Shown here: in pieces, positions 30,534 to 33,083 of the stretch
Position numbering within the stretch: position 1 is the stretch's first letter
Layout of the letters: each line of letters opens with the position of its first letter
Sequence record: PP925834.1
Length of the DNA: 64,000 nt
Strand: one strand, 5' to 3'
Source: Escherichia phage MiataMamis
Made by a program: the position numbers and the translations under genes
The notes under the pieces: generated by a model
The model's input: only the letters and a program-made list of their open reading frames with translations
Told to the model about the DNA's origin: nothing
Databases searched by the model: none

Positions 30534-30660
30534 CACACAATTAGCTGCCCGGCTAAAGTGCTGGAAGCACCTATAACACATCTTTCAACTAAATTTCCCA
30601 CCACCACAATCACTTACCTCCCACACATGACTGTTTGCTTGTTTAGTGAGCAGTCATGCC

Positions 30661-30688
30661 TTGACATTCTTGCCTATCCTGATAAAAT
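30661..30688 (+). promoter_or_regulatory. extended -10 promoter reading into ORF-free region
   Basis: TTGACA-N16-TGaTAAAAT; no downstream protein ORF on plus strand. Confidence 0.45.
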
Positions 30689-31937
30689 TAAGTTCTTCTC
30701 TTTTCTTTTACCGAGTAATTCGGGTTTTCTGTTCTCTTCGGTTTGAAGGGGTATGGAGATACACCTGAGTGAACAGGGTGAACAACCGAACCATTGGCTA
30801 TGGCATTAGCATGGCGAAGCGGACGGGTGACGAAAGAGGGGCCGGAGGACACCAGTCACTGCCATATGATATATGGGTGATAACCTGAAGAGTCTGAATA
30901 AGTGTTTAAGTACCAGTCAGAGGAAAAGGTGAATGGTAGCCGAAGGGGAGGGGGGTTACCTGCTTCTGTAAACATGCATCTGAAATACTACTTTAGATAA
31001 CCTGAACCTACCTTTCTGACAAATATTCCCTATTAAACTTGAATTATTTATAGAAAATACCACAACACTACTTAAGTCTTTGATTTTACACACAAACCCT
31101 GCAGATATTCACCCTCCATATTTAACATACTTGTAACATATTCCATACTCTACCTGCCCGATCAATTCACCCAACTACATCCCCATATTTTCCCTGTCTG
31201 TACTACCCCTGCCCCGCCGGGAGTCCCGTCATATCTGGCTTTCCAGCAAATATCACACCCACAAATATCATTGCCTGAAGAGGGTTTCATCCCATAGTAC
31301 ATGCCTTACCTGAAGAGCGCTTCCTATACCCCGTAAATTTTTTAATTGACACCCTCCCCGCCGCCGGAGGGGGTTGGCTTTTCCCACACAGACCTGAAGA
31401 GCCAGCCAGAAATATCTGAACAGGTCCAGTTATACCACGATTTTGTGCTTGTCCTACAGGAGTGCTTCCCTGTCAGGAGCCGGTAGCGACTGGAGTGCTG
31501 CCAGGCGGACGAAATGGGAATCATTCTCATTCTTATAACAATTCTCAAATATCGAGGCAGTGGGGCAAATTAATAGGTGAGGCCGTTCACACAATGGCAT
31601 AACATTTGCAACCTATCTTGGGGGAGTGAATGAGAATACCTATCATTGCGAGAATAGTTATCATTACGGGCAATTTAACATAATACCCATTATGCGCACC
31701 ACTGGCGATATATACAGGGGTTAATAACATGGTGGACTGTTTACGCACATTACAATTGCATTACTTATTATTTGTGTGGGATATAGTTAGCCACCAACAG
31801 ATTACATAATAACCTGCAGACTTCCAGCCGTCCAGACGTCTAAGCGCCCACACAACAAGGATTATACATACACTACTGAATGTAAACAGGGCCACAAAGA
31901 GACTACCATACAAGATTGTAAATTTTTCATGCAGCAC

Positions 31938-32017
31938 TTGACAAAGAGGAGAAAAACTTGTCTGACATACTATGACACAATAGTGACATAATGGTGACAC
32001 ACTGAACATAATTGACA
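31938..32017 (+). repeat. helically phased TGACA repeat array
   Basis: TGACA at about 31939, 31963, 31973, 31984, 31995, 32013; one copy forms TGaCATAAT extended -10-like element. Confidence 0.55.
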
Positions 32018-32037
32018 TGCATGACTGTTTACGCTCT

Positions 32038-32097
32038 CATTATTCACGCTATTACTATTCACTCCCTTTACTATTCACGCTCTTACTGTTTACATGC
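32038..32097 (+). repeat. tandem iteron-like repeats (TTACTATTCAC)
   Basis: TATTCAC at 32041, 32056, 32072 in 15-16 bp units, fourth degenerate unit TTACTGTTTAC. Confidence 0.6.
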
Positions 32098-32169
32098 TTA
32101 ATAGTACACATGACCAATAGTTTACATAGCTAACTGTTCACGTATAGACTATTTACACAAAGATGATAA

Positions 32170-32427
32170 GCCATGCCATTCGTTTGCATGACAATAATTA
32201 TACATGACAATAATCACACTGATTATAATTAGCATGACATAATATAAAAGCAGGGCAACTATTAGCAGATCTATAGTTGCCTTGCTTGTTATGTCATGAT
32301 TAACTAAATACAAGGCAACTATGATCTGAATAATAGATTGCAGACAAACTATCACGGGGGTGATGGTTACTGCTTTTATATTATGTCGCGACTCCGTCGC
32401 GCCATGCCATTCGTTTGCATAGTTGCC
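32170..32427. repeat. 20-bp direct repeat pair plus four GGCAACTAT/ATAGTTGCC sites
   Basis: GCCATGCCATTCGTTTGCAT at 32170-32189 and 32401-32420; GGCAACTAT at 32254 and 32314; ATAGTTGCC at 32273 and 32419; 32254-32281 is a near-perfect palindrome. Confidence 0.65.
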
Positions 32428-33035
32428 TTATTGTTACAGATAAAATAATTGTATTGTTAATTATTTCTTATCTTTCTCTTAGTCATCTAATGATTCCAGT
32501 CAGTATAGTAATGTACAGTAAACATTAGACGACTAAATATTTCTCTGTTTATGATAACTCACCATGACAATTTCTGACTGTTTACGAAAAATGTTGACAC
32601 CTAAGCTGATTTATGTTATGCAGTTTACACGAATAATTATTTTATGCAGGTATTGACTATTCCGTTATTCTATGGTCGGAATAAATACTTAGCGGACTAT
32701 AGAATGGTGAGCGTACGTGAATTCTGGAATTTAGTGGCTATAGTTATACCCGATTTTTCACGTAGAACACGCTTTTGTGGTTATGTAAGTGCATGACTTA
32801 TAAAGATTTTTAGTTGTTGACAAGACACTGAAGATATGCATCAGGTTAAATTTTGTGCAATAGCTGCATTACGTGCAATTTTGGAAGGAAAAACGTGTAA
32901 AAATGGCCCTCCTACCACACAATGAAAGATTATGCAATAGCTATTTTATATGTATATTTGTACAGTGTGTGGGATTGATGGCTAGTCAATTATTCCACTT
33001 GCCAGGCTGGGCCGTTTGTGGTAGGAGAAATACAG

Positions 33036-33065
33036 ACAAAAAGAAAGGGGCCTTTTAAAGCCCCT
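33036..33065 (-). terminator. intrinsic terminator ending the minus-strand block
   Basis: on minus strand AGGGGC-tttaaaag-GCCCCT followed by TTTCTTTTTG. Confidence 0.65.
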
Positions 33066-33083
33066 GATAGTTTAGTTAAGAAA

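Follow-up and report, generated by a model that had tools for sequence, protein, structure and literature searches.

A non-coding convergence zone of Escherichia phage MiataMamis as a probable genome-end junction, with a candidate structured RNA

A non-coding gap between converging gene blocks

We analysed a 64,000-nucleotide stretch of Escherichia phage MiataMamis (PP925834.1; the whole stretch is called the window below), focusing on the 2.5-kb zone at 30534–33083, where plus-strand and minus-strand gene blocks converge and in whose middle we located a direct terminal repeat (DTR). The window belongs to a Vequintavirus, an rV5-like Escherichia coli myovirus: positions 30000–33600 matched 162 phage records at 80–95% identity, and the gap between the two blocks corresponds to rV5 104014–106617. 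Pfam searches with the 10 largest open reading frames (ORFs) of the window placed ribonucleotide reductases in the plus-strand, nucleotide-metabolism block on the left. The minus-strand block on the right begins with small genes, followed by a family-A polymerase, a DnaB-like primase-helicase and a PIF1 helicase, so that the replisome of the phage is T7-style. No terminase was found among these 10 ORFs.

An earlier note on this DNA, made from the sequence alone, had reported no convincing ORF in the 2.5 kb, and the comparison with relatives bears this out. In the main alignment of 16 genomes (the window and 15 relatives), the adjoining gene ORF163 (30318–30533), which served as a control, was intact in 14 of the 15 relatives, with variable sites distributed 9/5/32 over the three codon positions. 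None of the approximately 30 ORFs of at least 25 aa in the gap was both intact in relatives and third-position biased. The small ORFs called there by some annotators are mutually inconsistent in position and strand, and the rV5 record has no annotation in this interval. More than 100 Vequintaviruses have been sequenced, and in most GenBank records, that of the type phage rV5 included, the sequence is opened at another point and the region carries no annotation. A diverged clade, about 50% alignable with the window, was found in IMG/VR and metagenomes (L009, L025, L027, L030 and L039). Hidden protein genes were ruled out by ORF integrity, codon-phase analysis and non-triplet indels between the two clades; the 2.5-kb gap is non-coding.

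No tRNA or tmRNA was found in the gap. Rfam returned no match at gathering thresholds for the whole 64 kb, and a search of 30300–33300 with E values up to 5 gave a sole sub-threshold match (22.5 bits versus a 41-bit cut-off), located on the terminator of the right-hand flanking gene, ORF164. A distant-mode BLAST search with the non-coding DNA of the gap returned Vequintavirus records only.

A direct terminal repeat in the middle of the gap

The centre of the gap is occupied by the following elements:

31504–31962, no strand assigned: DTR of 459 bp, with its left end at 31504 (GGCGGACG...) and its right end at 31962 (...CTTGTC)
31940–31962, no strand assigned: boundary inverted repeat GACAA-N13-TTGTC formed by the last DTR bases; the diverged clade has the counterpart ACAAA-N-TTTGT at the homologous place

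The record of phage Gotham carries an annotated 459-bp repeat at both of its ends. The two copies are identical, and they aligned without gaps to 31504–31962 at 90.6% identity. In the distant-mode search, the records of YN3, ECP2309, EdH4, bov10K2 and bov22_2 started at window position 31504, and those of Gotham and EcoIv14a_Aya ended at window position 31962. The repeat was constant in length (459 bp, zero indels) in the 16-genome alignment and in the approximately 117 phage records used for wide conservation counts. Its identity ranged from 80 to 95%, with no record of the 117 reaching 95%. The flanks on both sides were indel-rich right up to the DTR boundaries in the 16 genomes.

The published data on this group agree with these boundaries. 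A terminal redundancy of 458 bp was reported for EdH4/HdK5 (PMC6563267), and Gotham was described with 459-bp repeats, a fixed packaging start, and two-fold coverage and read-start peaks at the repeat (PMC7471380). KPP-1, from another genus of the Vequintavirinae, has a 514-bp DTR and T7-type packaging, with the corresponding coverage and read-start signature (PMC9862379). The DTR itself is already published for this genus. In close relatives the same sequence stands at fixed physical ends, a placement that would be carried to the window by homology. Given the DTR homology and the records that start or end exactly at its boundaries, the convergence zone is probably a concatemer junction with the virion DNA ends of a linear, fixed-end chromosome.

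Two further observations concern the repeat. In ON286975.1 (phage I29), the DTR query matched as two pieces over 1052 bp (104224–105275), and this assembly may have retained two repeat copies. At the right DTR edge, a promoter-like site (TTGTCA-18-TACAAT, 10/12; 31944–31915, minus strand) is directed into the repeat; in the copy at the left genome end, its transcription would run towards the terminus.

Motif arrays abutting both repeat boundaries

Short repeated motifs lie directly beside the DTR on either side:

31963–32017, plus strand: TGACA array of 5 units, beginning at the first base after the DTR; spacings 10, 11, 11 and 18 bp
32023–32157, plus strand: iteron array of 8 units (A)CTRTTYAC (units 32025–32156); spacings 15, 15, 16, 15, 32, 16 and 15
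31456–31502, plus strand: GGAGTGC-containing 33-bp unit, present or absent (ACAGGAGTGCTTCC / ACTGGAGTGCTGCC), abutting the left DTR boundary
30884–31401, plus strand: four CCTGAAGAG sites on the same strand (30884, 31274, 31309 and 31393)
30884–31401, plus strand: CAAATATC sites on the same strand (31247 and 31262), with a third at 31546 inside the DTR

The repeats listed in the earlier note were all found where it had placed them, and the arrays exceeded 200 dinucleotide shuffles of the whole window. Five TGACA units in 55 bp compared with a shuffle maximum of 4 and with 2 at the best site elsewhere in the window. The strict iteron CT[AG]TT[CT]AC occurred 6 times in 135 bp (shuffle maximum 2), and CCTGAAGAG 4 times in 600 bp (shuffle maximum 1). 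The first TGACA, directly after the DTR boundary, was invariant in 16 of 16 genomes; the copy number of the array varied from 2 to 6 at a period of about 10–11 bp. The iterons, which include TTACTATTCAC twice and TTACTGTTTAC, numbered 1–8 among relatives, and their 15–16 bp period (or multiples of it) was kept. On the other side of the repeat, the last 12 nt before the left boundary, GGAGTGCTGCCA, were identical in 14 of 15 relatives, with rV5 one base off.

The iteron motif also extends beyond its array. Exact copies of GACTGTTTACG occur at 31735, 32023 and 32576, all on the plus strand in or beside the gap, with variants at 30629, 32084, 32132 and 32147. Beyond the array, the motif stands at 31735 (within the DTR), at 32576 and, inverted, at 30769–30787.

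We rejected CCTGAAGAG as a genome-wide promoter motif: its copies outside the gap lie in coding sequence and are co-oriented with genes, and the local cluster alone is meaningful. The outside copies may be readable as Pro-Glu-Glu codons. Read on the minus strand, the TGACA array at 31963–31999 gives TGTCAC/TGTCAT at 11-bp spacing, which resembles tandem PhoB (pho) boxes. Its use as sigma-70 −35 boxes or as PhoB-type boxes for a host factor appears unlikely. A phage-specific rather than a host factor is suggested because the diverged clade swaps the unit for AGGCATAC.

The same layout with different units in a diverged clade

The order of elements is kept in the diverged clade: boundary sequences, inverted repeat, AGGCATAC units, CTGTTTCCAC iterons, bracketed module (described below) and AT-rich tract. 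The homologous boundary sequences predict a repeat of 667–700 bp there. The AGGCATAC units stand where the window has TGACATAC, and the CTGTTTCCAC iterons number 1–3. Both the CCTGAAGAG and the CAAATATC families are again repeated on one strand within the gap of this clade, with 4 copies each. The earlier note had held that protein-coding genes in related phages, or repeats not conserved in position and phase, would speak against its reading; the relatives' gap contains no conserved gene, and the arrays keep position and period even in this clade, where their sequences have changed.

Because arrays at the same positions carry changed unit sequences, a co-evolving protein–DNA recognition is suggested, with the boundary arrays as putative protein-binding sites. 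The protein that would bind them is most likely the terminase.

Two properties are specific to the diverged clade. In L009, an ORF for a 256-aa HNH_3 homing endonuclease, absent from the window, is inserted at 7716–8486 (plus strand) between the counterpart of the RNA block (below) and the C-rich tract. Three perfect DnaA boxes TTATCCACA lie in direct orientation within 50 bp (3524–3570 of the reverse complement of L009), inside the presumptive terminal repeat.

A bracketed palindrome module and predicted terminators

To the right of the iterons and to the left of the DTR, the following elements were found:

32170–32420, no strand assigned: two exact 20-bp direct repeats GCCATGCCATTCGTTTGCAT (32170–32189 and 32401–32420) bracketing the module
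32236–32387, no strand assigned: branched, highly stable fold whose closing stem is a perfect 18-bp inverted repeat, GACATAATATAAAAGCAG / CTGCTTTTATATTATGTC
32254–32427, no strand assigned: four GGCAACTAT/ATAGTTGCC sites at 32254 (+), 32273 (−), 32314 (+) and 32419 (−), for which alternative pairings are possible
32248–32287, minus strand: stem of a predicted terminator, with the tail TTTTATATT to 32236; matched to the Murica annotation by coordinate offset
32347–32368, plus strand: predicted terminator from the terminator scan, with its tail reaching 32387
31352–31385, plus strand: predicted intrinsic terminator from the scan, CCCTCCCCGCCGCCGGAGGGGG and then TTGGCTTTT, at a distance of 118 bp from the DTR; conserved, with indels immediately upstream
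32425–32560, no strand assigned: AT-rich tract (GC about 0.30) directly after the module, longer and more AT-rich in the diverged clade
32738–32813, minus strand: two islands identical between the clades, 32738–32761 (CTATAGTTATACCCGATTTTTCA) and 32789–32813 (TTATAAAGATTTTTAGTTGTTGACA)

The folding z-score of the module was −10.5 as single-stranded DNA and −8.3 as minus-strand RNA. Its palindrome arms are 32248–32262 and 32273–32287, and the four exact GGCAACTAT/ATAGTTGCC copies are the only ones in 64 kb. A GC-rich hairpin followed by a U-run was found at 31352–31385 (+), 32347–32387 (+), 32287–32248 (−) and 33065–33046 (−), and the terminator called in Alma apparently lies at about the same place as the minus-strand hairpin of the module. 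The palindrome/GGCAACTAT module reads as back-to-back predicted terminators. Together with the hairpin at 31352–31385, it brackets the DTR and the arrays and would insulate the packaging region from converging transcription.

The module of the diverged clade has its own near-identical direct repeats GCCATGTTATCGTTGCAT (at most 2 mismatches) enclosing 243–380 bp. The closing inverted repeat of L009, GACATAATAACGCTG / CAGCGTTATTATGTC, and its hairpin stem covary with those of the window, and CAGCGTTAT/ATAACGCTG sites take the place of GGCAACTAT/ATAGTTGCC. In phage FV3 (NC_019517), exactly one 20-bp repeat and the enclosed module are missing, which is consistent with a deletion by recombination between the repeats or with a pre-insertion state; the module is therefore not essential.

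Beyond the module, the 640 bp from 32440 to 33080 contained zero indels in the 16 genomes. We infer that the island at 32789–32813, missed by the promoter scan, is a candidate leftward promoter (TTGTCA-15-TATAAG, minus strand).

An invariant promoter-driven block

The left part of the gap contains the most conserved DNA of the zone and the segments that follow it:

30661–30688, plus strand: near-consensus sigma-70 promoter TTGACA-16-TGaTAAAAT (extended −10), 11/12 in the promoter scan
30692–30966, plus strand: candidate structured non-coding RNA of about 275 nt, with predicted pairing between a CU-rich leader at its 5' end and the G-tract GGGGAGGGGGG at its 3' end
30711–30723, plus strand: 5'-proximal stem-loop CCGAGTAATTCGG followed by a U-run, from the scan
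30765–30790, plus strand: invariant 26-nt core CTGAGTGAACAGGGTGAACAACCGAA of the RNA block, kept in the diverged clade
30950–31016, no strand assigned: two-allele replacement segment just 3' of the G-tract, with one allele in the window and L036 and the other in the other 15 aligned genomes
30975–31275, plus strand: tract rich in C and poor in G (GC skew to −0.68), situated right of the RNA block and left of the terminator at 31352

The promoter was 98–100% conserved in the 16 genomes, and the interval 30630–30930 was approximately 100% identical, exceeding the adjacent gene. At the wider scale, 30640–30945 was at least 99% identical in 102 of 117 records, whereas the DTR was below 95% in all. 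The block is approximately 70% identical to that of the diverged clade, which keeps a promoter (TTGCAA-17-TGcTATAAT), the 5' stem-loop with compensated changes (CCGAGTAATTCGG to CCAGAATACGCTTCTGG, the stem kept and the sequence changed), the core and the G-tract. The clades differ by non-triplet indels and have no ORF in common, and the block was unannotated in every record inspected.

RNAalifold paired the CU-leader with the G-tract, with 10 pairs changed on both sides. In this structure 99% of cells pair, compared with 54–59% with slid partners. Independent minimum free energy folds of both clades likewise closed the 5' end onto the 3' end. A permissive IMG/VR pattern scan for a third clade of the block returned the known loci and one chance match in a giant-virus metagenome-assembled genome, and a single metagenome scan returned members of the two known clades only. 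In the literature, we found no transcriptome or non-coding RNA study of this phage group.

We tentatively propose, at somewhat less than even confidence, that 30661–30966 encodes a structured RNA of about 275 nt that is hitherto undescribed, transcribed abundantly and more constrained than the neighbouring proteins, with a possible role in host takeover or anti-defence, in primer or R-loop formation, or in end processing. Primer or R-loop formation might be considered for its 3' end: in the majority allele, whose RNA would be U-rich after the G-tract, G4-5AG5-6 leads into a T-rich stretch, and this sequence resembles the mitochondrial CSBII primer-forming element. End processing is a possibility by analogy, as a distant functional echo of the phi29 pRNA, which is likewise encoded beside the genome end; the RNA block lies about 0.5 kb from the terminal repeat. 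If transcribed rightwards, the C-rich tract at 30975–31275 would be rut-like and a good Rho-loading site.

The iterons reappear, inverted, in the invariant core: GTGAACAG and GTGAACAA within 30765–30790 correspond to the left-arm iteron CTGTTCAC read in reverse complement. The motif therefore faces inward at each genome end.

The end-proximal gene and related records

The right border of the gap carries two features:

33084–33503, minus strand: flanking gene, homologue of rV5 ORF164, with no Pfam domain
33046–33065, minus strand: intrinsic terminator of this gene, found in the scan and also called in the Murica, Gotham, EdH4 and Alma annotations

ORF164 is missing in slur16, FV3, HMD-6, WM and Alma. 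Its protein is about 89% identical in phAPEC8-like Phapecoctavirus genomes, which belong to a different subfamily, and there too it lies near the record ends (for example MT496970 1245–1664 and OP172792 956–1375). ORF164 and its terminator are all that is common to the Phapecoctaviruses; the adjoining non-coding DNA is not shared. This pattern suggests that the end-proximal gene may have been exchanged between unrelated phages.

About 20 unannotated GenBank records of the MG0656xx series (e.g. MG065659 and MG065644), labelled as Campylobacter jejuni phages, were 92–95% identical to the E. coli Vequintavirus region. Their Campylobacter host label looks doubtful.

Discussion

The earlier note had read the zone as a replication origin, packaging site or transcriptional control hub. 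Packaging is supported by the DTR in mid-zone and by the TGACA array at its boundary, and transcriptional control is supported in part by the conserved promoter and the predicted terminators. The origin is unproven. Around an end position conserved among relatives, within a non-coding gap whose non-random arrays keep their layout in the diverged clade, the following course of events can be proposed. Virion DNA would start at 31504 and read rightwards into the minus-strand replication-gene block, and would end at 31962, arriving from the plus-strand nucleotide-metabolism block. Replicating concatemers would hold a single repeat copy between successive genomes; the terminase would cut at both boundaries, and the repeat would be duplicated during maturation, a duplication that is established for T7-type phages and that we infer here. 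The protein-recognition sites for the cuts would most likely be the TGACA array and then the CTGTTYAC iterons on the right side, and the GGAGTGC unit with the CCTGAAGAG and CAAATATC sites on the left side. The palindrome/GGCAACTAT module and the hairpin at 31352–31385 would face outwards as terminators and stop converging transcription before it enters the repeat and the arrays.

Several points weigh against this junction. The DTR boundaries of this genome are transferred by homology, at 90.6% identity, and the terminators are predictions. A period of 15–16 bp would place successive iterons on opposite helical faces, unlike classical phased terminase small-subunit sites. Phage WM has a single iteron and FV3 lacks the bracketed module, so that neither is strictly essential in full form. 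We know of no firm demonstration of what the analogous T7 arrays do.

The chances appear evenly balanced that the selected function of the locus is the RNA of about 275 nt from the strong promoter at 30661, possibly joined by another transcript running leftwards from about 32780 to 32236, and that the DNA repeats are secondary. Identity of at least 99% for promoter and block in 102 of 117 genomes, against 80–95% for the DTR, argues for it, as do the promoter, the 5' stem-loop and the internal stems kept through compensatory changes at about 70% identity, and the 5'–3' closing stem present in both clades over DNA with no conserved ORF. However, the folding z-scores are modest (−1.5 and −2.1), the covariation comes from two lineages with a structure derived from the same sequences, and the candidate RNA belongs to no Rfam family. 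It also occupies about 11% of the gap and leaves the arrays, the repeat and the module unexplained. Far less credible is the view that the zone is evolutionary debris, a junction prone to recombination and insertion with slipped repeats, mobile-element scars and deletions but no sequence-specific function, and we consider it very improbable. Copy number does vary in every array, and the two-allele replacement segment, the HNH homing-endonuclease insertion, the FV3 module deletion and the variable-length inserts in the module of the diverged clade would fit such a history. Yet two clades with differing units agree in the order of parts, in the periods and in the placement right at the boundary, the paired direct and inverted repeats covary, 640 bp are indel-free in 16 genomes, and one block is virtually invariant.

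A replication origin is an unlikely function of the zone, although it would be compatible with packaging. An initiator would act on the iterons, the AT-rich tract at 32425–32560 would melt, and a promoter-driven transcript would prime, either the leftward one from about 32813 or the rightward, G-tract-ended RNA at 30966; the promoter-plus-AT-rich origins of T7 or T4 are precedents. The eight periodic direct repeats by the AT-rich tract, both retained in the diverged clade, speak for an origin, as do the three perfect DnaA boxes TTATCCACA of that clade and the T7-style replisome encoded by the phage. GC is about 0.30 at 32400–32550, as in an unwinding element, though the 250-bp module separates this tract from the iterons. 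The iteron period of 15–16 bp departs from the helix-phased spacing (about 11 or 22 bp) of iteron origins, copies vary from 1 to 8 among close relatives, and no DnaA box with at most 1 mismatch occurs in 29870–36830. No initiator gene stands beside the arrays, and several relatives lack the neighbouring ORF164. The cumulative GC skew has its maximum here, which is the pattern of a terminus. The authors of the rV5 genome paper, which leaves the gap undiscussed apart from this switch, did use skew to look for an origin and located a switch inside the gap (rV5 104425–105475), but ascribed it to the direction of transcription (PMC3606486).

Vequintaviruses are widely used as therapy and biocontrol phages. 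A junction bearing the genome ends is a natural coordinate origin for annotation, and its conserved parts tell those who reboot or engineer such genomes which non-coding DNA must stay intact. Two clades with the same layout and different units constitute a natural experiment on how the terminase of a large myovirus recognises and duplicates a short terminal repeat, and a new phage RNA has a concrete candidate in the invariant block behind the promoter.

Comparison with known systems

The T7/T3 junction and the window share a short exact direct repeat at fixed ends, a motif array within about 15 bp of the boundary, a non-coding junction of more than 1 kb, strong host-type promoters near an end and a T7-type replisome. 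In the T7 sequence, the terminal repeat (1–160) is followed by about 12 CCTAAAG units with a 13-bp period (175–340), and the motif recurs before the right-hand repeat; the flanking arrays of T7/T3 were historically named SRL and SRR. Short-motif arrays flank the terminal repeat of the window in the same manner. In T7 the array motif is also present on the opposite flank and within the repeat, and CTGTTTAC is likewise found inside the DTR (31735) and on both flanks. In contrast, the window comes from a myovirus of about 137 kb rather than a 40-kb podovirus, its repeat is 459 rather than 160 bp long, and it carries two unlike arrays in series (10–11 and then 15–16 bp); the two systems have no sequence similarity. 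Genes on both arms of the window point to the ends, whereas T7 is transcribed from left to right. The rV5-like phages are not known to have a phage RNA polymerase or phiOL/phiOR-type promoters.

The R elements of lambda cosB and the pacL/pacR boxes of SPP1, which are recognition sites of terminase small subunits, consist of several short direct repeats spaced by about one helical turn beside the cleavage position, like the TGACA array. The units of the window are just 5–8 bp, the second array has a 15–16 bp period, and the sites are putative only. The lambda ori and plasmid iteron origins resemble the window in having direct-repeat iterons, an AT-rich tract and a palindrome nearby. Unlike these origins, the window has its palindrome module between the iterons and the AT tract, no adjacent initiator gene, no DnaA boxes in the gap, an unphased period and a terminus-like skew.

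The published DTRs of the Vequintavirinae (EdH4/HdK5 and Gotham) are the same element as the DTR of the window, as judged by gapless homology, length and boundary sequences. The papers on them give the length and existence of the repeat, without the flanking arrays, the insulating terminators, the RNA block or the conservation across clades. Relative to these reports, the flanking architecture, its conservation across clades with changed units, and the invariant RNA candidate are new.

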